Source: Candidatus Kaiserbacteria bacterium (GTDB taxonomy: Bacteria > Patescibacteriota > Minisyncoccia > Phycocordibacterales > UBA2100). Taken from it: a stretch of DNA of 64,000 nt. A program made the position numbers and the translations under genes. The notes beneath the pieces were generated by a model. It was not told the DNA's origin. It did no database searches and saw nothing but the letters and a program-made list of their open reading frames with translations. The DNA is taken from contig JACRFK010000005.1 of the NCBI GenBank assembly GCA_016217925.1, positions 44,170-108,169 on the forward strand, written 5' to 3'. This document shows positions 4,906 through 57,163 of the stretch, one piece after another. The first letter of the stretch is position 1; every line of letters starts with the position of its first letter.

Positions 4906-5043
4906 ATGACATTCCACGAAGATGAAGAAAAAGATCCGCTCGCCATTAGCGAAGAGGCAATCGGCGAAGTGCTTGATGAAGACGCCGACGAGGACGAGGT
5001 GGCAAGTGCCCCGCTAGAAGACGACGAAAAGGCGTGGGAATAA
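4906..5043 (+). CDS. putative small acidic protein (45 aa) ending inside a 38-bp perfect palindrome
   Basis: MTFHEDEEKDPLAISEEAIGEVLDEDADEDEVASAPLEDDEKAWE; stop codon lies within the hairpin gggaataaagcgaggccg-ta-cggcctcgctttattccc (5036..5073). Confidence 0.2.
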   Translation: MTFHEDEEKDPLAISEEAIGEVLDEDADEDEVASAPLEDDEKAWE

Positions 5044-5127
5044 AGCGAGGCCGTACGGCCTCGCTTTATTCCCACTCTCCACACGGGTTTTCATCCCGCA
5101 TTGTGGAGACGTGGTACCATTTCCTCT

Positions 5128-5654: not shown

Positions 5655-6872
5655 ATGCCCGAGACAAAATCCGAGAAAGCAATATCGTCGACGGAGCCTC
5701 TGCAGCTGGACGCCTTTTCGTTGCGTCTGAAGTTAGTGCTCGCTTTTGCGGTCTTGAGTCTGCTGCCTTTCATCTTCATCGCCGTCCGCATTACGGGAAT
5801 GTGGAAATACATCGCGGGGCTTTCGGCGCAAGGGAATTTCGCCGACTCGGAACTTGCGCGCGCGGTAACCGAGCAGAGCAACGCCTTCATTGTGGGAAGC
5901 ATTGAGTTTTCGGTAGTCTTTTTCATACTCGTCTGCGCCGGCATTATCTTTGCGGACCGCATTCTTGTGGGGCCGTTGTACAAGATTATTGATTGGATGC
6001 GCACCGCACGGGAAAATAAGTTCGCCGCACTTGCGCCGCTTCCGGTACAGAGCGGGGACGAGTGGAGCGCTCTGGGATACGAGATAGATCAGTCCATCAA
6101 ATACTTCCAGGAGGTGGAATCGCGTGAGCGTCAGATAGCCGAAGAGAAGGGGGAATTCATATCGGTCGCCGCGCACCAGTTGCGCACCCCTCTCACGGGG
6201 CTCAAATGGACGCTTGAGGTCTTGCGGGATTCCTCGACGACTCCCGAGAGTAAAGCAAAACTCCTCGACCAGGTATCGGGGACCACGGAGCGCATGGTGC
6301 GCTTGGTGGACGACGTGCTCGACGTTGCGAAGATCGAAGAGGGAAAGTTCGGATACGAGTATGCGATTACGGACATTATCGGCCCGATGCAACACCTGAT
6401 AAACGATTTTCTGGTGGTCGGGAAGAGCCGCGATGTCGCCCTCGTGTTCGAGCACGGAGAGGTCGCTCTCCCTGTCTACATGGATGTCAATCGCGTTACC
6501 CTCGCGGTATCGAACCTCATTTCCAATAGTCTCGATTACACGCGCGCGGGCGGGCGCATCACCCTGCGGATTGAGCGAGCCGGCCGGCAAGTCAGGATAT
6601 CGGTGCAAGATACCGGCATCGGTATATCACCGGAAGACAAAAGACGGCTATTCACGAAATTCTACCGCGGCGAAAGCGCGCGACGTATGCATCCGGATGG
6701 CTCGGGCCTCGGACTCTTCATCGCACGCAATGTCGCTCTTCGCCACGGCGGCGACGTGACCGTCGAATCCGAAGCCGGCAAAGGGTCAACCCTCTCTTTC
6801 AATGTGCCGCTTGAAAAGGCGGATATGGGCAAGGTGGAAGTTTCAGTAGGCAACTTTTTCGCCAGCTTTTGA
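5655..6872 (+). CDS. sensor histidine kinase (2 TM, HisKA + HATPase_c)
   Basis: H-box AAHQLRTPLTGLKW; N/G1/G2 boxes (DTGIGI, GSGLGL); N-terminal TM helices. Confidence 0.85.
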   Translation: MPETKSEKAISSTEPLQLDAFSLRLKLVLAFAVLSLLPFIFIAVRITGMWKYIAGLSAQGNFADSELARAVTEQSNAFIVGSIEFSVVFFILVCAGIIFADRILVGPLYKIIDWMRTARENKFAALAPLPVQSGDEWSALGYEIDQSIKYFQEVESRERQIAEEKGEFISVAAHQLRTPLTGLKWTLEVLRDSSTTPESKAKLLDQVSGTTERMVRLVDDVLDVAKIEEGKFGYEYAITDIIGPMQHLINDFLVVGKSRDVALVFEHGEVALPVYMDVNRVTLAVSNLISNSLDYTRAGGRITLRIERAGRQVRISVQDTGIGISPEDKRRLFTKFYRGESARRMHPDGSGLGLFIARNVALRHGGDVTVESEAGKGSTLSFNVPLEKADMGKVEVSVGNFFASF

Positions 6873-7095
6873 ATCCACCGTGAGGTGCCGCCGAAGGCGG
6901 TTCGACTGTCGGCCGTAGGCCGATGGGAGAAGGTTCACGTCGGAACGAGCACGTTCCGACGCAAAGTGCGGACCACGATACGAGGAGTGTCACGCACGAA
7001 CGAGCACGTTCGGGCGTCGTAAGCATGAGCACGCGCGGGCCAAGTAAGAGAAGGTTCACGTCGGAACGAGCACGTTCCGACGTAAAGTGCGGACC
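6862..7095. repeat. repeat family A locus 1: ~100-nt stop-codon-embedded element with a second partial copy and a related hairpin
   Basis: 6862..6963 is near-identical to 21790..21890; the 24-nt perfect hairpin cgtcggaacgagcacgttccgacg occurs at 6938..6961 and 7059..7082, with related cgaacgagcacgttcg at 6996..7011. Confidence 0.65.
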
Positions 7096-7122
7096 AAAAC
7101 CCGTTTGTGATAGTATAAAGTC

Positions 7123-7458: not shown

Positions 7459-7579
7459 AGCATCTTTTAAAACCCCATCTACTTCGTTGCGGGGCCCCAG
7501 CGTCACCGTCGCCGTACCTCCAGTACGTCTCCGTCGCCGCTTTCCCCGCGCCTCGTACCTGGAGTTTTAAAACACGCTC
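7456..7579. mobile_element. repeat family B copy 1: MITE-like element with ~17-nt terminal inverted repeats, starting at the TAG stop of the upstream gene
   Basis: TAGAGCATCTTTTAAAAC...GTTTTAAAACACGCTC; interior ~90% identical to copy 3 at 57042..57163. Confidence 0.6.
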
Positions 7580-8298: not shown

Positions 8299-8676
8299 TC
8301 AAATGTCGCCGGACTGCATTCTGCGTTGAAGCGCAGTTCGTGGAAACTTGCGCCGCTTTTTCTTGCTCTTGCTCTTGTGGCTGCTGAAGCATTCGAACGC
8401 CCTAGACAAGGTTTTGAGCTTGATGGGCTTCCCCTTTTCATCAAGCACGGGATAGACCTTGAGAGGCCGCTTCAAGGCACCTTTTGGCAGCTCAAGTGCC
8501 TGCGTAAGTGAGTGAGCAGGCGTTGATCTCACGAAGTCCACGAACTTTCGGAACTCCTCCAGCGGATCGACGTTGGGAGAGGCTCCGCGCTCCTCTGCCA
8601 ACAATTGGCCGATTTGACGGTAGCGTTCGACGCTTGCCGCGCGAGCGACACGCGTTCTCTTGCGAGTTTTGCCCAT
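8299..8676 (-). CDS. hypothetical basic protein
   Basis: 125-aa ORF, Lys/Arg-rich; no recognised domain. Confidence 0.3.
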   Translation of the reverse strand: MGKTRKRTRVARAASVERYRQIGQLLAEERGASPNVDPLEEFRKFVDFVRSTPAHSLTQALELPKGALKRPLKVYPVLDEKGKPIKLKTLSRAFECFSSHKSKSKKKRRKFPRTALQRRMQSGDI

Positions 8677-13809: not shown

Positions 13810-13830
13810 GTGGTACAATGGCGAAATGGA

Positions 13831-13911
13831 CCCCGTTAGAAGCTTTGTGGAATTTTCACTGGTAGCAAAAAGTATCGCTCGAATTTCAATATCCTATGGC
13901 TTCTAACGGGG
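13831..13911. repeat. repeat family C copy 1: 13-nt perfect dyad CCCCGTTAGAAGC...GCTTCTAACGGGG around a 55-nt AT-rich loop
   Basis: The 3' arm encodes the ATG and first codons (MASNGV) of the downstream gene. Confidence 0.6.
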
Positions 13912-14237
13912 TGGACCTCGCGCAAAAGAAGTGTGTTGCATGCGAAGGCGGCGCAGAGCCAATGACTCCCATGGAGGCGATGGCGCTCCTCACGCACCTC
14001 AAGGGGTGGGCGCTGGCAAAAGATTTTAAAAAGATATCAAAACAATTCAAGTTCAAGAATTTTCTTGAAGCAATGGAGTTTGCCAACAAGATAACGCCGA
14101 TAGCGGAAGCAGAAGGCCATCATCCTGACCTCGAAATAGGCTGGGGAAGGGTCGGTATCGAACTCACCACGCACGCCATCAAGGGTCTTTCCGAAAATGA
14201 CTTCATTTTGGCTGCCAAGATAGACAAAATTGCGTGA
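13896..14237 (+). CDS. phhB: pterin-4a-carbinolamine dehydratase (PCD/DCoH)
   Basis: EGHHPD...W..V...L.TH...GLS motif; 113 aa. Confidence 0.8.
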   Translation: MASNGVDLAQKKCVACEGGAEPMTPMEAMALLTHLKGWALAKDFKKISKQFKFKNFLEAMEFANKITPIAEAEGHHPDLEIGWGRVGIELTTHAIKGLSENDFILAAKIDKIA

Positions 14238-14317
14238 CCCCGTTAGAGGCTTCGAGAACTATGCGTATGCCGTTGTTCGTTCCGCAACGAAAAGAATGAC
14301 CGTGGCCTCTAACGGGG
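14238..14317. repeat. repeat family C copy 2 (CCCCGTTAGAGGC...GCCTCTAACGGGG), between PCD stop and pilM
   Basis: Starts directly after the TGA stop of PCD; the 3' arm is followed by a TATAAT box and then the pilM ATG. Confidence 0.6.
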
Positions 14318-14332
14318 TGATATAATTTCACA

Positions 14333-17196: not shown

Positions 17197-18933
17197 ATGC
17201 CGGGAGAGGGAACCACGACGGCACCTAGAACAAGCGCTCAGCCTATTGGGGATGTGCCGGTGCGCACTATCGGAGAGACCAAGATCGCCTATGAGATACT
17301 CCGGTACATACCCGAGGAGTCAGCGACCCATTACGGATTAGTTCCGATTGGTGTTACGGAAGGTGTTCTTGAAGTCGGAATGCTGGACCCGACTAACATC
17401 GATGGTGTCGATGCGCTTAATTTCATCGCACGGACGTCTGGAATGCCTTTCAAAATCTTTCAGATCAGCAAGGACGACTTCGATCATGTATTGGGAATGT
17501 ATCGTGGGCTCGGTGGTGAGGTTGAGCGAGCAGTCTCGGATCTTGCGACAGAGAGCAAACAAGAAAAAGGAAAAACAGGCGACCACGAGAACTCCTCTCT
17601 CGACCTCGAAGACCCCTCTATAGGAAGAGGCCCAGGTGAGGGCAGAGCAAATATCCAAGAAGACGCGCCGACAATCAAGATCGTTTCGACAATACTACGA
17701 TACGCCGTTGATGGGAAAGCGTCCGACGTACACATAGAACCGCAGCCATCCGGTGTACGCGTCCGCTATCGTGTCGACGGCGAATTACACACGAGCGTCA
17801 TATTACCTCTCAGCACGCACCGCGCGCTCGTTGCGCGCGTGAAGGTCCTCGCTTCTATCAGGCTCGACGAAATGCGCAAGCCGCAAGACGGTCGCTTTTC
17901 GGCGTCGATAGACACGCGTCAGATCGACTTCCGTGTATCCACATTCCCGTCGTACAACGGGGAAAAGGTGGTCATCCGTATCCTCGACCGCGATCAAGGA
18001 TTCATTCCTCTCGACCAAATAGGCCTCACGCCACGCAATCTAACAGCGATACGAAAAGCGGTCGCCGCTCCACACGGACTGGTCCTTATCTCGGGACCGA
18101 CGGGTTCCGGAAAATCGACGACACTGTATTCGATGCTCTCAGAGGTCGATCGTGAACACAAGAACGTCCTCTCGCTTGAAGACCCTATCGAGTATTACGT
18201 CGAGGGGGTCATTCAGTCACAGGTGCGTCCCGAGATTGGGTACACGTTTGCCAATGGTTTGCGCACGACCCTGCGCCAGGACCCGGACGTCATCATGGTG
18301 GGCGAGATACGCGATGGCGAGACCGCTAAACTTGCCATCCAGGCGGCGCTCACGGGCCACCTGGTGTTGTCGACGATACACACCAATGATGCGATCGGTA
18401 CTATTCCGCGCCTCATCGACATGGGAGTTGATCCATACCTCATCCCGCCGGTCCTTATTCTTTCCATCGCGCAGCGGCTCGTGCGCACCTTTTGCCCTGA
18501 TGCGGCGCAAGAAACCGCGCTCAGCGTGTCGCAACGCAAAAGCATCGAGAAACAACTCGGGTCTCTTCCGGAAAAGTATCGCTTTAAGGTGCCTGATGTG
18601 GTGTATGAGCCGGTACGCACTCCGACCTGTCCGACTGGTCTTCGCGGACGCCAGGCAGTGTTCGAGGTCCTCGAAATGTCTTCAGATATCGAGAAGATCA
18701 TACTCGACAATCCGGTCGACTCGCGCATTTGGGCGGCGGCGCGTGCACAAGGCATGATGACCATGCAAGAGGATGCTATGATTAAAGCGTTCGATAAGCG
18801 CGTTCCGTTCTCTGAAGTGAATGGCCTCTCCACGCTTTTGCTCGCTGGCGATGAGGACCACGAAGTGGGAGCGGAGCCCGCAGACAAAGAAGCTTCGCCC
18901 GAGGCGGAGACGCCTGGGGCCACGAATGTATGA
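17197..18933 (+). CDS. pilB: type IV pilus assembly ATPase PilB/GspE
   Basis: N-terminal GspE_N (MshEN-like) domain; Walker A GPTGSGKSTT; Asp/His boxes; 578 aa. Confidence 0.9.
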   Translation: MPGEGTTTAPRTSAQPIGDVPVRTIGETKIAYEILRYIPEESATHYGLVPIGVTEGVLEVGMLDPTNIDGVDALNFIARTSGMPFKIFQISKDDFDHVLGMYRGLGGEVERAVSDLATESKQEKGKTGDHENSSLDLEDPSIGRGPGEGRANIQEDAPTIKIVSTILRYAVDGKASDVHIEPQPSGVRVRYRVDGELHTSVILPLSTHRALVARVKVLASIRLDEMRKPQDGRFSASIDTRQIDFRVSTFPSYNGEKVVIRILDRDQGFIPLDQIGLTPRNLTAIRKAVAAPHGLVLISGPTGSGKSTTLYSMLSEVDREHKNVLSLEDPIEYYVEGVIQSQVRPEIGYTFANGLRTTLRQDPDVIMVGEIRDGETAKLAIQAALTGHLVLSTIHTNDAIGTIPRLIDMGVDPYLIPPVLILSIAQRLVRTFCPDAAQETALSVSQRKSIEKQLGSLPEKYRFKVPDVVYEPVRTPTCPTGLRGRQAVFEVLEMSSDIEKIILDNPVDSRIWAAARAQGMMTMQEDAMIKAFDKRVPFSEVNGLSTLLLAGDEDHEVGAEPADKEASPEAETPGATNV

Positions 18934-19096
18934 CCCCGTTAGAGGCTTCGCGTTTCAAAAAACAATAAATGTATGAACCCCGTTAGAAGCTTCGTAAAAT
19001 ATCTTTCAGTATGTACTTTATAATTTATTGCCCAATATCCTATGGCTTCTAACGGGGTGAACCAAGCAGATACAAATAAAGAGGCCTCTAACGGGG
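18934..19096. repeat. repeat family C copy 3: nested double dyad (outer CCCCGTTAGAGGC/GCCTCTAACGGGG, inner CCCCGTTAGAAGC/GCTTCTAACGGGG)
   Basis: 5' arms at 18934 and 18978; 3' arms at 19045 and 19084; both 3' arms are translated in-frame as MASNGV...EASNGA at the N-terminus of the receiver protein. Confidence 0.6.
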
Positions 19097-19497
19097 CGGC
19101 CGATACACCGGCAAAAAAAGGGACAATTCTTCTCATCGATGATGACAAGTTCCTTTTGGATATGTACGGGATGAAATTTTCTCAAAGCGGATATACGGTC
19201 GAAGCGTGTTTATCAGGAAATGAGGCGCTCGGCGTCTTGCGCGGCGGATTCCAGCCCGACGTGCTCCTCTTTGATCTGACCATGCCAGAGCTCGATGGAT
19301 TTTCATTCCTAAAGGCAATTTCTGATGAGCGTCTTGCGACTAATTCGCTCAAGATCGCGCTCACGAACCAAAGCGATGAATCGGAAAAAACAAAGGCGAT
19401 GGAGATGGGCGCTTCACGTTATATCGTGAAGGCGAGCATGATCCCGTCGGAAGTTGTCAACACGGTCAGTGAAGAGCTTTCAAAACGTCACGCGTAA
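19042..19497 (+). CDS. single-domain response regulator (PilG/PilH-like receiver) with a repeat-derived N-terminal extension
   Basis: ILLIDDDKFLLDMYG...DVLLFDLTMPELDGFSFL...K receiver signature; sits between pilB and pilT. Confidence 0.75.
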   Translation: MASNGVNQADTNKEASNGAADTPAKKGTILLIDDDKFLLDMYGMKFSQSGYTVEACLSGNEALGVLRGGFQPDVLLFDLTMPELDGFSFLKAISDERLATNSLKIALTNQSDESEKTKAMEMGASRYIVKASMIPSEVVNTVSEELSKRHA

Positions 19498-20591: not shown

Positions 20592-21800
20592 ATGGCCATC
20601 TTCAAGTACACGGCCCTTGACGCGGAAGGGAACCAGCGGCAAGGAACCATTGATGCCGTCAATATGGACGTGGCAATTGCGGCACTTCAGCGTCGCGGTC
20701 TTGTTATATCCGGTATCGATCCTGCCGAGAGCAAGACGCTTTTGTCACAACGCTTTTCGTTCTTTGACCGCGTGAATAATGCGGACGTCGTCATGCTCTC
20801 AAGGCAGATCACGACGCTCTTCGAAGCGCAGGTCTCGGCCCTCCGCGCGTTCCGATTGCTTGCGGCGGAAGCACGCACTCCGGCCTTAGGCGAGAAATTG
20901 ACGGCTATCGGCAACGATCTGCAAAGTGGTAGCTCGATCTCGGCAGCCCTCGCACGACACCCCGACGTATTCACGCCTTTTTACGTGAACATGGTGCGCG
21001 CGGGGGAGGAATCAGGAAAACTCGATGAGACCTTCGCATACCTTGCCGACTACCTTGACCGCAATTACGAACTTACCCAAAAGGCTCGCAACGCGTTGGT
21101 CTACCCCGCGTTCATCATGCTCACGTTCATTGTGGTCATGGTACTCATGATGACGCTCGTGATCCCGCACCTTTCGGACATGCTTCAAGAGACTGGGCAG
21201 GGCATACCGATCTACACAAAGATCGTGATCGGCATTTCACAATTCCTCACCCGCTATATTGCTCTCATCCTCATATTGGTCGTGATAGGAGCGGTCTTCC
21301 TATATCGATTCTCGCGCACAGCACACGGTAGAGAAATGCTCTCGCGCGCACGTCTCGAATCGCCGGCGATCGGCAACATATATCGCAAGATATTTCTTTC
21401 GCGCATCGCCGACAACCTTTCAACAATGCTTCGAAGCGGCATTCAGGTATTGCGTGGCCTCGAGATAACGGGATTGGTAGTCGGGGATGCGGTCTATGAA
21501 AAAGTGCTCGCTGATTCGGCGAACGACGTCAAGGGCGGTATGCCGCTTTCTGAGGCCTTGCGTAAGCATCGGGAGATCCCGGGTATTGTGGTCGCCATGG
21601 TGAAGATCGGCGAGGAGACGGGGAATATGGGGAAGATACTTGAGACTATGGCCCGATTCTATCGTCGAGAAGTGAACAACGCCGTCGACACGCTCGTTGG
21701 CCTCATTGAGCCGTTAATGATCGTTATCCTAGCCGTCGGCGTCGCGATACTTCTCGCGTCAGTCCTCTTGCCTATTTACAACATTGCTTCCAGCTTCTGA
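20592..21800 (+). CDS. pilC: type IV pilus inner-membrane platform protein PilC (GspF family)
   Basis: 402 aa with two GspF repeats and 3-4 TM helices. Confidence 0.9.
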   Translation: MAIFKYTALDAEGNQRQGTIDAVNMDVAIAALQRRGLVISGIDPAESKTLLSQRFSFFDRVNNADVVMLSRQITTLFEAQVSALRAFRLLAAEARTPALGEKLTAIGNDLQSGSSISAALARHPDVFTPFYVNMVRAGEESGKLDETFAYLADYLDRNYELTQKARNALVYPAFIMLTFIVVMVLMMTLVIPHLSDMLQETGQGIPIYTKIVIGISQFLTRYIALILILVVIGAVFLYRFSRTAHGREMLSRARLESPAIGNIYRKIFLSRIADNLSTMLRSGIQVLRGLEITGLVVGDAVYEKVLADSANDVKGGMPLSEALRKHREIPGIVVAMVKIGEETGNMGKILETMARFYRREVNNAVDTLVGLIEPLMIVILAVGVAILLASVLLPIYNIASSF

Positions 21801-21890
21801 ACCCACCGCGAGGTGCCGCCGAAGGCGGTTCGACTGTCGGCCATAGGCCGATGGGAGAAGGTTCACGTCGGAACGAGCACGTTCCGACGA
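21790..21890. repeat. repeat family A locus 2, beginning 8 nt before the pilC stop codon
   Basis: ccagcttctgaacccaccgcgaggtgccgccgaaggcggttcgactgtcggccataggccgatgggagaaggttcacgtcggaacgagcacgttccgacg is ~95% identical to 6862..6963. Confidence 0.65.
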
Positions 21891-22501: not shown

Positions 22502-22605
22502 GTGACCCCGCCCGAAGAGGGCGCCCGTAGGGGCCGAATGTCTGCCGAAGGCAGATACGAGGCGGGTCAGGCACGCGCGAGCACGCGCGGGCCAAGACAA
22601 AAACC

Positions 22606-22650
22606 AGCACGAACCCCGCCTATGGCGGGGTTCGTGCTGTATACTCTTTT
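22606..22650 (+). terminator. rho-independent terminator after pilA
   Basis: agcacgaaccccgcc-tatg-gcggggttcgtgct hairpin followed by gtatactctttt. Confidence 0.6.
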
Positions 22651-24093: not shown

Positions 24094-24720
24094 ATGGAGG
24101 AGAAAACTCAGAAAAAGGCAAATCAGACTTCCCGCCATACGCCATACGCCATACGCCATACGCGTGGGTTTACTCTCATCGAGATGATAGTGGCAACCGC
24201 GCTTTTTGCGGTCGTTATGGTAGTTTGCGTCGGGGCCCTCTTGTCTCTCGTGTCTGCGAACAGAAAGGCGCAGGCTCTACAATCCGTGATGAATAATCTG
24301 AACATCGCGCTCGACGGAACGGTGCGGTCGGTGCGCATGGGCAGTGACTACGATGCCGGTTCAGCGGGCTGTACGGTGATCGACCCCCTGAATCCGCACG
24401 ATTGTGCGGAGGGCAGCACACAAATATCATTCAAACCATTCGGTGACCCATTGCAGTCCCGCTGGGTATATCGTTTCAATAGCACAACCCACCAGCTAGA
24501 GCGCTCGACGACCGGCTCTATCGCAGGCGCGGTCCCCATCACCGCCCCTGAGGTGTCCATCGACAGCATGCTCTTCTATGTTATTGGGACACAACAATCG
24601 GACACGGTGCAGCCGAAGGTCGTTATCGTTATCAAGGGAAGCGCCGGGGCTTCCGGCACGACAGCACACACCACGTTCCACATCCAAGCGACCGCGGTCC
24701 AACGCGTACTCGATCTATGA
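24094..24720 (+). CDS. minor pilin / pseudopilin 2 with heptamer-repeat-containing leader
   Basis: ...HTRGFTLIEMIVATALFAVVMVV prepilin N-terminus; leader contains (GCCATAC)x4. Confidence 0.65.
   Translation: MEEKTQKKANQTSRHTPYAIRHTRGFTLIEMIVATALFAVVMVVCVGALLSLVSANRKAQALQSVMNNLNIALDGTVRSVRMGSDYDAGSAGCTVIDPLNPHDCAEGSTQISFKPFGDPLQSRWVYRFNSTTHQLERSTTGSIAGAVPITAPEVSIDSMLFYVIGTQQSDTVQPKVVIVIKGSAGASGTTAHTTFHIQATAVQRVLDL
24134..24161. repeat. tandem heptanucleotide repeat (GCCATAC)x4 in the 5' region of minor pilin 2
   Basis: gccatacgccatacgccatacgccatac read directly. Confidence 0.85.
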
Positions 24721-25409
24721 ATATGAAGAAAAGTATATCGTATATCGTATATCGTATATCGTATGGAAAATACGGAACGGCCGGCATCCATACCAGATAC
24801 CAAATACTACATACTACGTACGGCGCACGGAGTGCGGGGTTTTCGCTCATCGAAACGCTCATCGCGATCTCACTTCTTTCGATCGCGATCGTCGCGCCGA
24901 TGACGCTTGCATCGAAAGGCCTTTCGACCGCTTATTATGCGCGCGATCAGATCACCGCTTTTTATCTCGCTCAAGAAGCCATCGAGGCGCTCCGGAGTAT
25001 CCGTGATGCGCAGGTACTCAAGATTACCCAAGGGCAAAGCGGGATCGATATTTTGGGGCAAATACCCATAACGACCGCCACCCAAGATAATTCTTTTACG
25101 ATTGATGCGCGGAAGGGAGACCCCGCACTTGCGATAACAAGGTGTTTAGATTATCCCGGGCAGACATGCCCGCCGCTTCAGACCAATATTGCTTCCGACC
25201 TTCCTCTGTACGGATACGAGAGTGGTTGGGATGAGACCTATTTCACGCGCATCGTGCGCGCGACGGTCGTCAGTGAGGATACCGGTGGTGTGCCGCAGGA
25301 AATACGCGTCTCAGTCACTGTTTCCTGGCGGACGGGCTCCATCCAGACCCGCACGTTCAATATTTCGGGGAACTTGTATCGGTGGGCCAACGACGATTCA
25401 GCTCAATGA
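24717..25409 (+). CDS. minor pilin / pseudopilin 3 with heptamer-repeat-containing leader
   Basis: ...SAGFSLIETLIAISLLSIAIVAPM prepilin N-terminus; ATGA overlap with the previous gene; leader contains (GTATATC)x4. Confidence 0.6.
   Translation: MNMKKSISYIVYRISYGKYGTAGIHTRYQILHTTYGARSAGFSLIETLIAISLLSIAIVAPMTLASKGLSTAYYARDQITAFYLAQEAIEALRSIRDAQVLKITQGQSGIDILGQIPITTATQDNSFTIDARKGDPALAITRCLDYPGQTCPPLQTNIASDLPLYGYESGWDETYFTRIVRATVVSEDTGGVPQEIRVSVTVSWRTGSIQTRTFNISGNLYRWANDDSAQ
24733..24764. repeat. tandem heptanucleotide repeat (GTATATC)x4 plus partial, with ATACTACx2 nearby (24805..24818)
   Basis: gtatatcgtatatcgtatatcgtatatcgtatgg read directly. Confidence 0.85.
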
Positions 25410-29569: not shown

Positions 29570-30970
29570 ATGGATTTGTCGACACTAACGATTGCGGAGG
29601 CTCGTCGCGCATTGGACGCCAAAGAATATTCCGCGCTCGAACTTACGAACGCATATTTGGATGCTATTGCCCAGAAAGACGGAGAATTCCACGCATACCT
29701 AGAAGTATGGACTGATTCGGCACGTGAGGAGGCAAAGGCGGCGGATGCGATGATTGCGGCGGGCAAGTCGCAGCCGCTTACGGGAATTCCTATTGCGGTC
29801 AAGGACAATATGCTCATTGAAGGTCGTATCGTGTCGGCCGCATCGAAAATCTTGGAAAATTATCACGCCTCATACGATGCGACTGTCATTTCAAAATTAA
29901 AAGCGCAGGGCGTTGTATTTCTCGGCCGCACCAATATGGATGAATTCGCGCTCGGCAGCTCCACGGAAAATTCGGCCTATGGCCCCACCAAGAATCCGCA
30001 CGACACATCCCGCGTGCCCGGCGGCACCTCAGGCGGCTCGGCTGCGGCTGTGGCGGCAGGAATGGCGCTTGCCGCGCTCGGGAGCGACACGGGCGGCTCT
30101 ATCCGCCAGCCGGCGGCATTTTGCGGCGTCGTCGGGCTGAAGCCCACATATGGCGCTGTTTCCCGTTCCGGCCTTATCGCCGCAGCTTCCTCGCTCGACC
30201 AGATAGGCACGCTCGCGAAGAACGTGAATGATGCAAAAATCCTCTTCGATGCGATTCGCGGTCACGACGCGATGGACAGTACCTCTATAGAAAATCCGAA
30301 ATCCGAAATCCGAAACCCGAAAAAGCTTGGGGTGCCGCGGGAGTTTCTTACAGATTTGAATCCGGAAATACGGACGCAATTCGAGAGCACACTGCAGACG
30401 CTAAAAGATAAGGGATACTCGGTCACTGACGTTGCGCTACCGTCTTTGCAGTACGCGCTTGCGGTGTACTACATCATTAACCCTGCGGAAGTTTCTACGA
30501 ATCTCGCGCGGCTCGACGGCATCCGCTACGGGCTTTCCGTCCCCGCGGATGTCATCGGGGAAGTGTATTCAAAGACGCGCGCCGCGGGATTCGGCGCTGA
30601 GACACGCCGTCGCATCCTCGTCGGCACGTTCGTACTTTCTTCGGGATACGCCGATGCGTACTACCGCAAGGCGCGCTCGGCGCGCGAGCTTATACGCGCC
30701 GATTTTGCAAAAGCGTTTGAATCCGTAGATGCGATTGTCATGCCGACGACGCCATCTCCCGCATTTAAACTCGGCGAGAAAAATAATGACCCCGTATCAC
30801 TGTATCTCGAAGACATTTTCACGGTGCCTGTAAATCTCGCAGGAGTACCCGCAATATCGGTGCCTGGTGGCACCGTGGAGCGCGATGGAAAAAAGCTGCC
30901 TGTAGGATTTCAGATAATCGGTGCGTGGGGCGGGGAACAGACACTCTTTGCCATCGGCAAAGATGTCTGA
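29570..30970 (+). CDS. gatA: Glu-tRNA(Gln)/Asp-tRNA(Asn) amidotransferase subunit A (amidase signature)
   Basis: GGSSGGSAAAVAAG amidase signature; Ser-cisSer-Lys triad context; 466 aa. Confidence 0.9.
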   Translation: MDLSTLTIAEARRALDAKEYSALELTNAYLDAIAQKDGEFHAYLEVWTDSAREEAKAADAMIAAGKSQPLTGIPIAVKDNMLIEGRIVSAASKILENYHASYDATVISKLKAQGVVFLGRTNMDEFALGSSTENSAYGPTKNPHDTSRVPGGTSGGSAAAVAAGMALAALGSDTGGSIRQPAAFCGVVGLKPTYGAVSRSGLIAAASSLDQIGTLAKNVNDAKILFDAIRGHDAMDSTSIENPKSEIRNPKKLGVPREFLTDLNPEIRTQFESTLQTLKDKGYSVTDVALPSLQYALAVYYIINPAEVSTNLARLDGIRYGLSVPADVIGEVYSKTRAAGFGAETRRRILVGTFVLSSGYADAYYRKARSARELIRADFAKAFESVDAIVMPTTPSPAFKLGEKNNDPVSLYLEDIFTVPVNLAGVPAISVPGGTVERDGKKLPVGFQIIGAWGGEQTLFAIGKDV

Positions 30971-31093
30971 TCCCGCTAATGGCGCGTCGGCATCTGCTGA
31001 TGCCGACGTAAACCTCTCGCATCGGCCTTCGGCCAACACTCGACCTGCCTATGGCAGGCACACCCTCGTGTTGGTTTAGGTTATAATCTCTCC

Positions 31094-31804
31094 ATGGACT
31101 CCAATCCCGCACCCGGCAGCTCAATAGGGTCGGCGCTTTGGTTTCTCGGCGAGGTCGCATTCAAGTGGATTCCCGGTGCGGTGGTAAGCATCGCAGGCAC
31201 CGGAGTCGCGGCGCCTTCGGGAGAAGCGTCACCATTCGCCACGCCCATTACGGCCCCAGTGACCGCTCCGCAGATCGTTCAGTATCTACAGACGGCGTCG
31301 GCGCCTGGAGCGTACGACAGACTTTTCCAACAGTGGAGCACCTTTGTCGCGTTCTCACTTCTCATCTCGTTGTTGCTGGGCGCGCTTTCGATCTACTGCT
31401 CGATACGAGTTTTTCAGATACGCCAGCTCGAAAGACGTAAATTTGCGGCGGCGCAGCGTACGGTCGTGGCGCATGATGTGCCGAAAACGCAGTTACGCTG
31501 GAACAGAATACTGGAACAAGCAAACAGTGATTCCGAGCAGTCGTGGCGGCTCGCGATACTCGAGGCAGACATCATGCTCAACGAGCTCCTCGATGTGAGA
31601 GGTTATAGGGGTGAGACGATGGCAGACAAAATGCGCGGCGTTGACCGCACGGATTTCAACTCGATCGATCTCGCGTGGGAGGCTCACAAGATCCGTAACA
31701 AGATCGCGCACGACGGCAGCGCGCACCAGCTCACGGCGCGCGAGACGCGTCGAGTCGTCGCTTTGTACGAAAGAGTGCTGAAAGAATCCCGCTTCATTGA
31801 GTAG
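31094..31804 (+). CDS. membrane-anchored protein with C-terminal HEPN-like (DUF4145-like) domain
   Basis: One TM (FVAFSLLISLLLGALSIYCSI), then a C-terminal R-x4-H motif (KIRNKIAHDG) in a helical context typical of HEPN. Confidence 0.45.
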   Translation: MDSNPAPGSSIGSALWFLGEVAFKWIPGAVVSIAGTGVAAPSGEASPFATPITAPVTAPQIVQYLQTASAPGAYDRLFQQWSTFVAFSLLISLLLGALSIYCSIRVFQIRQLERRKFAAAQRTVVAHDVPKTQLRWNRILEQANSDSEQSWRLAILEADIMLNELLDVRGYRGETMADKMRGVDRTDFNSIDLAWEAHKIRNKIAHDGSAHQLTARETRRVVALYERVLKESRFIE

Positions 31805-32480
31805 TTTGTCTTGCGAGTTCTTGAATCGACCCCAGAATTCTGCGCCGCAAAGCGGTTGCTCTACGAACCTTGATGCGAAGTGTGCCGAAGTGTTGCTCCG
31901 GGTCGGAGTATACCTTTTGAGAGCGCGCCTTAATCAGACTCGCCTTTGAGAACTGCGAAAGAGGAATCCCCGAAATTTTTGACCAGTATCGCTCGACATC
32001 CGCCACTCTATGGCGATGTTTTTGGTTGATAGATACACGAAGTATCAGGTCGGACAGAGGAATGTTATATATACGTCGGAGCCAAAGTACAAAAGAGCGG
32101 ATAATATCGGGGTTACTGTTAGTGAGCCCGCACTCCTCATTTCCACTCTTATAACCTTCACCCCAGTAGAGACCTATACCCAGTATGAATATGTCCCGCT
32201 GACTCAGGGAACCGATTGCCCGGGCGCCACGTCTCGACTCTACCTCCACAGCTTCAATGCGTGCAGTACGTTTTTTCTCCGCAGCCCGTAGGCGACCGAG
32301 GGCGCCGGCGTCGTTCCGCCTTTGGACAAGTGATTGTATCTGTTTGTCCGATAGCAAGATGTCCCGGCACCAGTAGCTCACGGTGCTTTTACTTGTCTTC
32401 AGCATCGTTGCGATTACTGCAATGCTTTCTCCCTTTACCCGCAAACCGCGTGCCTTCTCGCGAAGTCGGATGAAAGCCAT
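31794..32480 (-). CDS. HTH + LAGLIDADG-like putative homing-endonuclease-family protein (paralog 1), divergent from the intron-containing tRNA(CAU)
   Basis: N-terminal HTH (IAVIATMLKTSKSTVSYWCRDI); central LGIGLYWGEGYK...TNSNP motif resembling a single LAGLIDADG motif; ~35-40% identical to the ORF at 34855..35544. Confidence 0.6.
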   Translation of the reverse strand: MAFIRLREKARGLRVKGESIAVIATMLKTSKSTVSYWCRDILLSDKQIQSLVQRRNDAGALGRLRAAEKKRTARIEAVEVESRRGARAIGSLSQRDIFILGIGLYWGEGYKSGNEECGLTNSNPDIIRSFVLWLRRIYNIPLSDLILRVSINQKHRHRVADVERYWSKISGIPLSQFSKASLIKARSQKVYSDPEQHFGTLRIKVRRATALRRRILGSIQELARQTTQ

Positions 32481-32564
32481 CCGAGCATGATAACACAAGG
32501 TTTCTGGATATCAGTCGGTTGTCCAGTGCTTGCATGCAGTGGCGTATACGTCTATACTCACAAA

Positions 32565-32868
32565 AGCGGGGTGGAGCAGTAGTAGCTCGCAAGGCTCAAT
32601 ATGGGCTCGTTCACGAGCAATTGTGAACGGAACACTTGTCAAATTCGGTGAAACCTCTCTCGTGCCACGAGGTGGCAATACCGAGCCAAGTCCCGCCGGC
32701 GGCGGGAAAGGTGTAGAGACTAGATGGCAGGCTCCCAGACGGATACTTGAAAAGTATCGTGAGGGATGAAGGTATAGTCCAGACCACGAATCCACTGGTA
32801 GTGGAGCGGCGAAAGCCGTAGCGGTATGCATAACCTTGAGGTCGCAGGTGCAAGTCCTGCCCCCGCAA
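32565..32868 (+). tRNA. tRNA(CAU) (initiator-like tRNA-fMet; Ile2/elongator Met not excluded) interrupted by a group I intron between U33 and C34
   Basis: 5' exon AGCGGGGTGGAGCAGTAGTAGCTCGCAAGGCT (32565..32596) nearly matches E. coli tRNA-fMet 1-26; 3' exon CATAACCTTGAGGTCGCAGGTGCAAGTCCTGCCCCCGCAA (32829..32868); spliced anticodon loop is CTCATAA; 1:72 A.A mismatch. Confidence 0.8.
32597..32828 (+). ncRNA. self-splicing group I intron, subgroup IC3-like (232 nt, no internal ORF)
   Basis: Conserved core blocks GTCAAATTCGGTGAAACC, TGGCAATACCGAGCCAAG, AAAGGTGTAGAGACTAGATGGCA (R) and AAGGTATAGTCC (S) align with the Azoarcus pre-tRNA-Ile intron; 5' exon ends in U and the intron ends in G. Confidence 0.8.
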
Positions 32869-57044: not shown

Positions 57045-57163
57045 AGCGCGTTTTAAACCCCATCTACTTCGTTGCGGGGTCCCAGCGTCGCCGTCGCCGT
57101 ACTTCTAGTACGTCTCCGTCGCCGCTATCCCTGCGCCTCGTATATGGGGTTTAAAACGCGCTC
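57042..57163. mobile_element. repeat family B copy 3: MITE-like element starting at the TAG stop codon
   Basis: TAGAGCGCGTTTTAAACCCC...GGGGTTTAAAACGCGCTC perfect 18-nt terminal inverted repeats; interior ~90% identical to 7456..7579. Confidence 0.65.

Follow-up and report, generated by a model that had tools for sequence, protein, structure and literature searches.

Two genes of a Candidatus Kaiserbacteria bacterium, one encoding a sensor kinase and the other the type IV pilus protein PilC, end in almost the same palindromic sequence. Both lie in a 64,000 nt stretch of genomic DNA (contig JACRFK010000005.1, positions 44,170–108,169; this whole stretch is termed the window). What is this sequence, and how has it come to occupy the ends of two different genes? 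The analysis indicates that the two copies are probably members of a new family of small, non-autonomous, interspersed palindromic elements in the Candidatus Kaiserbacteria lineage, akin to the repetitive extragenic palindromic (REP) sequences and bacterial interspersed mosaic elements (BIMEs) and to the Rickettsia palindromic elements (RPEs). No description of repeats of such a kind was found in the literature on the candidate phyla radiation (CPR), Kaiserbacteria or Parcubacteria.

The element is a unit of 92–93 nt with five helices. P1 closes P2, P3 and P4 to generate a four-way junction with no unpaired bases at its center, and P5 joins P1 without a linker. In the type I form, P1 is UGAAYC paired with GRUUCA, and includes a stop codon. 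P2 is CACC-GYGA-GGUG and P3 is CCGCC-NNN-GGCGG. P4 begins with UUC/GAA, passes through a tandem G·A internal loop, and continues as CUGUCGGCC-NNN-GGCCGAUGG, while P5 is CGUCGGAACG-AGCA-CGUUCCGACG. Fifteen of 16 copies keep the tandem GA/GA loop. A G·U in P4 is conserved, and one such pair is invariant. P5 may be stacked on P1, and this would place the first and last nucleotides of the unit side by side. Three of the hairpins had been recognized in a preliminary description of the window, and all are correct; P1 and P2 complete the fold.

The structure is supported by extensive covariation between 17 distinct copies, taken from the window (G1) and from six further related genomes (G2–G6, with L039 as the seventh) represented by metagenome contigs and by contigs fetched via their proteins. 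Standard pairs are formed in 97.0% of cells. Both sides have changed in 22 of the 37 pairs (78 cells), compared with 2–5 pairs in slid controls and 11.4 ± 1.7 in column shuffles, and the covariation score is 0.381 against 0.150 in the shuffles. All five helices differ in sequence between type I and a second form, type II, yet remain paired. The covariance analysis proposed in the preliminary description therefore yields compensatory changes in the stems, and its cautionary case of a repeat confined to two sites and lacking covariation is not what is found, as there are further copies and the covariation is clear.

The strand on which selection acts can be deduced from the mismatches. G·U pairs occupy 35 cells and A·C 2; with the two conserved wobble columns removed the numbers are 10 and 2. 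This excess shows that one strand, in single-stranded form, is the selected species, and a duplex or cruciform is excluded in that role. The sense strand folds fully with either DNA or RNA parameters, while its complement loses P1 and the outer part of P4. The identity of the unit lies in its single-stranded fold and not in its sequence. The loops of type I P2 are GNRA tetraloops (GUGA, GCGA and GAGA), which are typical of RNA, and those of P3 and P4 are mostly C(GNA)G triloops, typical of especially stable DNA hairpins. Since both occur in a single fold, the molecule may be RNA or DNA.

The same census of the window was obtained with two covariance models, the first built from seven copies and the second (R2) from both subtypes and run with all filters off. 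There are four full copies and two fragments, all in the first 31 kb, and none between 31 and 64 kb; the two main copies of the preliminary description were thus an undercount. Model E-values lie between 1e-10 and 1e-20, the folds have z = −4 to −7 relative to shuffled sequences, and the element is present in independent NCBI, ENA, JGI and Logan assemblies. A chance origin is excluded.

The first copy is of type I and occupies positions 6870–6961 on the + strand (cmsearch 110 and 106 bits with the two models). It opens with TGA, which is the stop codon of the gene for the HisKA/HATPase sensor kinase (5655–6872), and the P1–P4 four-way junction is followed by the P5 hairpin CGTCGGAACG-AGCA-CGTTCCGACG. 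The second, also of type I (21798–21889, + strand, 111 bits), provides the TGA stop codon of pilC (PilC/T2SSF, 20592–21800). It differs from the kinase copy at 3 of 92 positions in the distance table, and is a recent copy of it. As originally noted, the identity of the two loci is strong and begins ahead of both stop codons: 6862–6961 and 21790–21889 are identical at 96 of 100 positions, with the similarity starting 8 nt before each TGA. The complete diverged copy after pilA is of type II (22503–22593, + strand; 63 bits with a model from which it was left out and 80 bits with R2), and begins 1 nt past the pilA stop codon. Its P1 is UGACCC/GGGUCA, P2 is CGCCC-GAAGA-GGGCG, P4 is UGUCUGCC-GAA-GGCAGAUA and P5 is GGCACGCGCG-AGCA-CGCGCGGGCC. 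The fourth is a diverged type I copy on the − strand (30985–31078), found by sensitive self-comparison and scoring 82 bits; it is antisense, located between gatA (29570–30970) and an open reading frame (ORF) starting at 31094, and all of its stems are preserved through compensatory changes.

Downstream of the pilA copy, between pilA and pilD, a perfect 16 bp hairpin at 22605–22639 has T-tracts on both strands and is conserved in the related contig L023. In sequence it resembles a bidirectional terminator, and it is separate from the preceding element.

The element is mobile. The clearest case comes from two near-identical genomes, L020 and L014, that differ by exactly one 93 nt unit. The insert in L020 is a complete, diverged unit extending from the first base of P1 to the last base of P5, and lies in inverted orientation between the G and the A of the GA loop of a resident copy. 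There is neither a target-site duplication nor terminal inverted repeats at this insertion, and no duplication was seen in the flanks of 19 copies. The unit is thus inserted as an exact block without duplication, and is able to land in the unpaired loop of another copy.

Comparison of orthologous positions points the same way. The pilC 3′ site is filled only in the window, and is empty in L023 and L025. At the pilA 3′ site G1 and G2 have a copy and G3 and G4 have none, and the kinase 3′ site is filled in G1, G3 (L035, 1417–1508) and L039 and empty in L038. A position termed site A, which follows a gene for a small acidic protein and its hairpin, holds a copy in G3 and in G6, and none in the window (5040–5075 on the + strand, by alignment with L013; in L034 the element is at 8486–8574). 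A pseudopilin leader site is filled in G2–G5, and is again empty in the window (24094–24165, + strand). The spacer 3′ to gatA contains something different in each genome: in the window a type I variant lying antisense, in G2 a sense type I copy beside an older 5′ remnant, a sense type II copy lacking P2 in G3, and a sense type II copy overlapping the end of the gene in G4.

The origin of the pilC copy can be traced from the codons that precede it. The kinase coding sequence immediately 5′ to the unit, CCAGCTTT (6862–6869, + strand, encoding ...A S F), reappears at pilC as 21790–21797. Kinase orthologues natively end GCN AGC TTN TRA, as in GCG AGC TTT TGA (L039) and GCA AGC TTA TAA (L038, where there is no element). 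PilC natively ends TCN TCN TTC TAG in three other genomes, and AGC TTC TGA is found only in the window. The kinase-type codons at the end of the window pilC indicate that the kinase copy was its source and that 8 nt of flanking kinase sequence were carried along, and as both proteins end SF* the change at pilC was silent. PilC ends ...IASSF* in all four genomes compared, whether or not the element is present, and the kinase orthologues end ...FFASF or ...FFASL. The earlier suggestion that the repeat overwrites gene 3′ ends therefore holds for the nucleotides at the kinase and pilC, but not for the proteins, whose ends are unchanged there relative to orthologues.

No fixed insertion target was found; there is only a partial association with the heptamer CCGNARG. 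This lies directly 5′ to the unit at 4–5 of ~13 independent sites, where ~0.01 would be expected, and at pilA it is already present in the empty sites as a proline codon and stop. This points to either a target preference or an optional 5′ module.

Insertion into older copies, truncation and recombination have produced mosaics. In the pilC–pilA spacer of G3 an older copy (P1 UGACAC...GUGUCA) is split by a newer one, and in the G3 leader a new variant stands beside a leftover type I P5. The kinase 3′ copy of L039 (1338–1432) is a chimera, with a type II 5′ half (UGACCC and CGCCC-GAAGA-GGGCG) and a type I 3′ half comprising GAUUCA and a type I-like P5, CGUCGGAACG-AGUA-CGUUCCGACG; its P1 is no longer fully paired. 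This is evidence of recombination between the subtypes.

Three pieces of the same kind follow the kinase copy in the window, all on the + strand. A truncated remnant of an older copy at 6976–7016 (17–22 bits) retains the 3′ end of P4, the 3′ strand of P1 (GTGTCA) and a variant P5, CGCACGAACG-AGCA-CGTTCGGGCG; the same type of remnant, GAGTGTCACGCACGAACGAGTGCGTTCGTGCG, is present in the G3 pilC–pilA spacer. The further related hairpin reported at this locus is thereby confirmed as a diverged one. Next, the 3′ half of a type II P5 hairpin, GAGCACGCGCGGGCCAAG, lies at 7027–7044, and the same 18-mer is found at 22579–22596 within the pilA copy. The recurrence of a motif after pilA had been seen correctly, with coordinates displaced by 4 nt. 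Finally, a truncated type I 3′ module (GAGAAGGTTCA plus P5) with a duplicated 3′ flank, TAAAGTGCGGACCA, occupies 7048–7096 and is 98% identical to 6927–6975, as expected for the tandem partial copy already described; cmsearch gives 29–30 bits for 7026–7082.

Five short-read contigs end within the element, and two of these are Logan contigs of the window's own organism; one, L001, stops 42 nt into the pilC copy. Contig breaks inside the element are the signature of a repeat that assemblers cannot cross.

How widely is it distributed? Using a strict pattern for the type I core, the only true match among GTDB species-representative genomes is a Candidatus Kaiserbacteria metagenome-assembled genome (MAG) that is syntenic with the window at 68–78% nucleotide identity, and there are seven true loci in the JGI metagenomes. 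The pattern is too narrow for type II, and abundance is therefore underestimated. The other matches to the pattern are mostly due to chance, in unrelated high-GC genes, and real ones are confined to Kaiserbacteria. A search with a peptide proxy returned just 15 proteins, mainly pseudopilins. The more distant kinase loci (43–45% identity) contain no copy, and three patterns gave 0 matches in viral contigs, so that there is no sign of a phage vector.

The resident copies lie predominantly where genes end. P1 supplies the stop codon, TGA, to the kinase gene in three genomes, to pilC in G1 and to gatA in G3. The C-terminus of the gatA product is remodelled in G4 (KDV* becoming ETATRRA*), and gatA is extended by nine codons in G2. 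The acidic-protein gene next to site A encodes a small and very acidic ORF product of ~45–62 amino acids ending ...WE*, conserved at 4906–5075 of the window, 100–260 of L013 and 8266–8480 of L034, with no match to a Pfam family. It is followed by a conserved hairpin, AAAGCGAG...CTCGCTTTATTCC, upstream of a response regulator, and in two relatives the element is inserted right after this hairpin.

The second class of site lies within genes. In relatives of the window, prepilin leader peptides contain the element in antisense: its reverse complement is read in frame, and ends exactly at the G(−1) codon, giving ...RRLxADS|GFTL(I/V)E. Such insertions occur in two different pseudopilin families, and a third gene has a variant copy. 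The leader remains open with one copy (93 nt, equivalent to 31 codons) and with two nested copies (~75 residues).

Prepilin leaders have also received other sequences. In a pseudopilin on the minus strand of L023 (2061–2909), the N-methylation motif is preceded in frame, in place of a usual ‘leader’, by a GIY-YIG nuclease domain that is complete (Pfam E = 2e-14), and this fusion is another mobile-type insertion in a prepilin leader. The window contains tandem heptanucleotide repeats of ~4.4–4.6 copies: CGCCATA (100%) at 24133–24163, GTATATC (100%) at 24733–24764 and AAATCCG (95%) at 30292–30322. CGCCATA and GTATATC lie where two adjacent pseudopilin genes encode their leaders, at the 5′ ends, and AAATCCG is inside gatA. 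Since slippage with a period of 7 shifts the reading frame, the pseudopilins may be phase-variable. Taken together, the GIY-YIG domain, the heptamer repeats and the element suggest that the cleaved-off leader may act as a safe harbour for insertions.

Once in place, copies are strongly constrained. At the leader site the element is 92–97% identical between genomes, compared with 68–81% for the adjacent pilin coding sequence. At the kinase site it is 96% identical, compared with 70–75% for the coding sequence and 43% for the downstream spacer. Type I copies group by class of site across genomes and not by genome: the sense copies at 3′ ends are 3–7 nt apart and the antisense leader copies 3–8 nt apart, while copies of different classes differ by 7–13 nt even within one genome. 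Homogenization within genomes was considered as the cause of the conservation and rejected, as the clustering follows site class. Six of 18 unpaired columns are variable and 10 of 74 paired columns, with changes in the latter mostly compensatory or wobble. The substitutions follow pairing, and thus the constraint acts on the nucleic acid rather than on an encoded peptide.

The reading that we favor, a family of mobile palindromic units, unites these observations as follows. From time to time the unit is copied elsewhere, as one precise block and with no target-site duplication. In a very compact genome it is tolerated only where harm is minimal, in last or stop codons, short spacers, older copies and cleavable prepilin leaders, and the gene often takes its stop codon from the unit's TGA or TAA. 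After insertion the copies are held under constraint at the level of the nucleic acid. Mobilization would be by a trans-acting enzyme that recognizes folded single-stranded DNA (ssDNA), either HUH-like, resembling the REP-associated tyrosine transposases (RAYTs), or another structure-specific nuclease; a comparable route has been proposed for REPs with RAYTs and for IS200/IS605 (PMC6006769, PMC8266576, PMC3733652). Sense copies retained at gene 3′ ends may also serve to protect RNA 3′ ends. Three of the four window copies are on the + strand, probably the leading strand to judge from GC skew, in a sample too small to carry weight; by analogy with IS608, the folded strand would then lie on the lagging-strand template.

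A number of observations weigh against this reading. A Pfam scan of the ~50 ORFs of the window revealed no transposase, recombinase or reverse transcriptase, and no HUH, DDE or RAYT gene stands beside a copy in the window ORFs or in the gene tables of ~150 kb of related loci. The sampled loci do contain a large serine recombinase and the reverse transcriptase of a diversity-generating retroelement (DGR), one of each and both unlinked to copies. The apparent copy number is low, with four full copies in 64 kb and few matches in the public scans. All the sampled copies are in or near one ~30 kb region that contains the kinase, the type IV pilus genes and gatA, although sampling was biased, the ~300 kb of related DNA being centered on one locus. 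Base-exact boundaries come from one insertion event, that in L020. The lack of a constant flanking target argues against a classical mechanism of the IS200/IS605 type. Lastly, the strong conservation at orthologous sites and the clustering by site class agree with a host function no less well than with selfish persistence.

That last point leads to the alternative that survives best, in which the sequence is primarily a structured RNA serving the host, as a block to exonucleases in 3′-untranslated regions, a processing site adjusting relative expression within the kinase and pilus operons or a protein-binding RNA (a possibility already raised in the preliminary description), and is duplicated only occasionally. 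The low copy number would be expected on this basis, as would the conservation of orthologous copies (92–97% against 43–81% in the flanks) and their site-class clustering. Most of the 3′-end copies have the same sense as the gene upstream, and begin at its stop codon or immediately past it: at the kinase in G1, G3 and L039, at pilC in G1, at pilA in G1 and G2, at gatA in G2–G4 and at site A in G3 and G6. The strand-specific fold, the conserved G·U pairs and the GNRA loops of P2 are all in keeping with RNA. Yet at least five types of site are antisense to the surrounding genes (3′ to gatA in the window, the pilC–pilA spacer of G3 and three pseudopilin leaders), the triloops that predominate in P3 and P4 are of the kind especially stable in DNA, there are copies nested within others as well as truncated remnants, and in sister genomes the corresponding gene ends have neither the element nor anything to replace it. 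Nor is there a match to any Rfam family even at E ≤ 10. A host RNA as the primary explanation is possible but rather unlikely; an additional role for the retained sense copies as an RNA 3′-end module is plausible.

More speculative is the idea that these sequences represent a new class of structured single-stranded replicator or module in CPR bacteria. The ends of the unit would be juxtaposed by the fold, and exact-block insertion would proceed by a mechanism outside the known transposases, either a structure-specific nuclease and ligase acting on ssDNA or an RNA intermediate. Sublineages would then have been kept by the host, the sense copies as RNA modules at gene ends and the antisense copies in prepilin leaders. 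We regard this as doubtful.

A DNA-level site belonging to the type IV pilus locus is improbable. Such a site might bind a nucleoid protein, or might be a binding or recombination site for the rearrangement or variation of pilins, and the sampled copies do all fall in one ~30 kb region centered on the pilus genes, including the 3′ ends of pilC and pilA and three pseudopilin leaders, in a locus that is otherwise plastic (with its DGR insertion, GIY-YIG fusion and heptamer repeats). But the sampling was centered on the pilus locus by design, the genes followed by copies also include the kinase, gatA and that for the small acidic protein, and neither pilin cassettes nor silent copies were seen in the DNA sampled. 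A duplex binding site has no need of the selection for one strand that is evident in the ratio of G·U to A·C cells.

An intrinsic terminator cassette, one of the functions put forward in the preliminary description, is very improbable. P5 is indeed a perfect, G+C-rich 10 bp hairpin at gene ends, but no T-tract follows it on the sense strand, where the sequences read CAAAGT, AACCGT, AAGACA and AAAAAA, and the sole terminator-like call at the kinase locus is on the opposite strand. Copies are found in antisense orientation and inside genes, and the pilA copy is followed by what appears to be a separate, conserved bidirectional terminator. Least credible of all is a recoding signal at UGA, either SECIS-like (that is, resembling a selenocysteine insertion sequence) or for read-through. 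At five gene ends the TGA that opens P1 is also the stop codon, and beyond it the sense frame stays open through the type I element. But the proteins end in the same way as orthologues lacking the element, there are copies that have TAA or CGA as their first triplet, lie past the stop codon or are antisense, and the substitutions track base pairing and not codons.

If the element is mobile, which of the known systems does it most resemble? Like REPs, BIMEs and the REPIN–RAYT system it is extragenic and mostly downstream of genes, forms a strand-specific hairpin structure, occurs as full and partial mosaics, is conserved between related species, and lacks terminal inverted repeats and target-site duplications. 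REPs are thought to move as ssDNA through the action of a trans-acting HUH enzyme (PMC3733652; PMC6006769, PMC8266576). A further likeness is the GTAG-containing heptamer CCGTAGG that adjoins several copies. A REP is however a single imperfect palindrome of 20–40 bp with a stem of 5–13 bp and an unpaired GTAG or CGTC tag at one end (PMC3733652), whereas the element has 92–93 nt, five helices and a four-way junction, and its tag is not constant, the GTAG heptamer being present at 4–5 of ~13 sites. REPs exist in tens to thousands of copies, often as head-to-head dimers, and the element has an apparently low copy number. No RAYT gene is found in the window or in the related loci examined. The term ‘REP/BIME-like unit’ used previously is therefore apt for an interspersed, structured, extragenic and mobile sequence that forms mosaics, but not for its size, its five helices or its lack of a constant GTAG or CGTC tag.

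The CGTC-tagged REPs, which include RPE-4 and RPE-6 of Rickettsia and dRS3 of Neisseria, are likewise palindromic without a dedicated transposase, and P5 of type I begins with CGTC. Intragenic units are known among them (PMC3733652). Their CGTC tag is unpaired, with stems of 8–9 bp that begin with A/T pairs and loops of 4–5 nt. In the element CGTC is paired with GACG in a G+C-rich stem, and there is no CGTC in type II or in the L020 copy. The RPEs of the RPE-1 type are palindromic sequences of ~100–150 nt in a reduced genome, inserted in frame in protein genes and translated, with a mobilization mechanism that is unknown (PMC10969869). The 93 nt unit read in frame in prepilin leaders, single or nested twice, has the same character. 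It differs in belonging to another phylum with no sequence relationship apparent, in that its in-frame insertions are in the cleaved leader and not in the mature protein, and in that most copies are at gene ends.

The palindrome-associated transposable elements (PATEs) derived from IS200/IS605 have neither target-site duplications nor terminal inverted repeats, and have strand-specific subterminal structures and ssDNA intermediates (PMC6006769). The element shares the combination of absent duplication and strand-specific end structures. Elements of the IS200/IS605 group insert 3′ to a fixed tetra- or pentanucleotide, and have tails that extend beyond the end hairpins. Here, by contrast, the flanks vary (with CCGNARG beside a subset only), the unit ends exactly at helix ends, and no tnpA is seen in the DNA examined.

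[quoted passage not shown] MITEs are defined by terminal inverted repeats and usually by target-site duplications (PMC10969869), and a classical MITE was rejected since neither is present at the base-exact L020 insertion. The window does contain an unrelated 106 nt repeat at 7466–7571 and 57051–57156 (90% identical), with clear terminal inverted repeats gagcNNNttttaaaac ... gttttaaaacNcgctc. From these features it looks like a classical MITE, unlike the element studied here.

Other candidates were set aside. In Rfam nothing reaches the gathering score, and at E ≤ 10 there is only a 15 nt chance match; ARAGORN and Rfam place tRNAs only elsewhere in the window. A tRNA-like element or known small ribozyme was rejected, as the loops are too small and no model matches. 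An integron attC site, in which R″/R′ core sites RYYYAAC...GTTRRRY bound a palindrome at cassette 3′ ends, was rejected on inspection, for neither P1 of type I (TGAAYC...GGTTCAC) nor that of type II (TGACCC...GGGTCAG) fits GTTRRRY; the context also differs, the neighboring genes being core genes and not cassettes. The absence of any array and spacer organization led to rejection of TIGR arrays. Template and variable repeats of a DGR were rejected, as the differences between copies are not adenine-specific and the DGR of one relative is absent from the window. That DGR consists of a typical pair of bAvd and RVT_1 reverse transcriptase genes, between the response regulator and pilT in L025 (3764–5205; also in L026 and L027).

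CPR genomes are tiny and compact, and the usual view is that they contain few repeats and little mobile DNA; here an element family defined by structure is found in such genomes. The element rewrites gene ends, and across genus-level divergence it is far better conserved than the genes around it. It breaks short-read assemblies, and creates spurious ORFs and odd prepilin leaders of 40–75 residues in annotations. The covariance model can be used to flag copies in Kaiserbacteria MAGs and to aid scaffolding. We know of no enzyme for the CGTC-tagged REPs or the RPEs, and the element offers a compact test case for how palindromic sequences lacking target-site duplications and terminal inverted repeats (REPs, CGTC-tagged REPs and RPEs) move and are retained by their hosts.

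Two further features of the window stand apart from the element. Rfam identifies a group I intron at 32587–32801 (69 bits), around which ARAGORN finds no tRNA, and the minus-strand ORF beside it (31794–32498) has only a weak match to HTH_38. A third family of repeats occurs at 13826–13931, 14233–14320 and 18931–19100, where inverted copies of GACCCCGTTAGARGCTTCG form long hairpins, located on both sides of the pterin dehydratase gene and in the interval from pilB to the response regulator.

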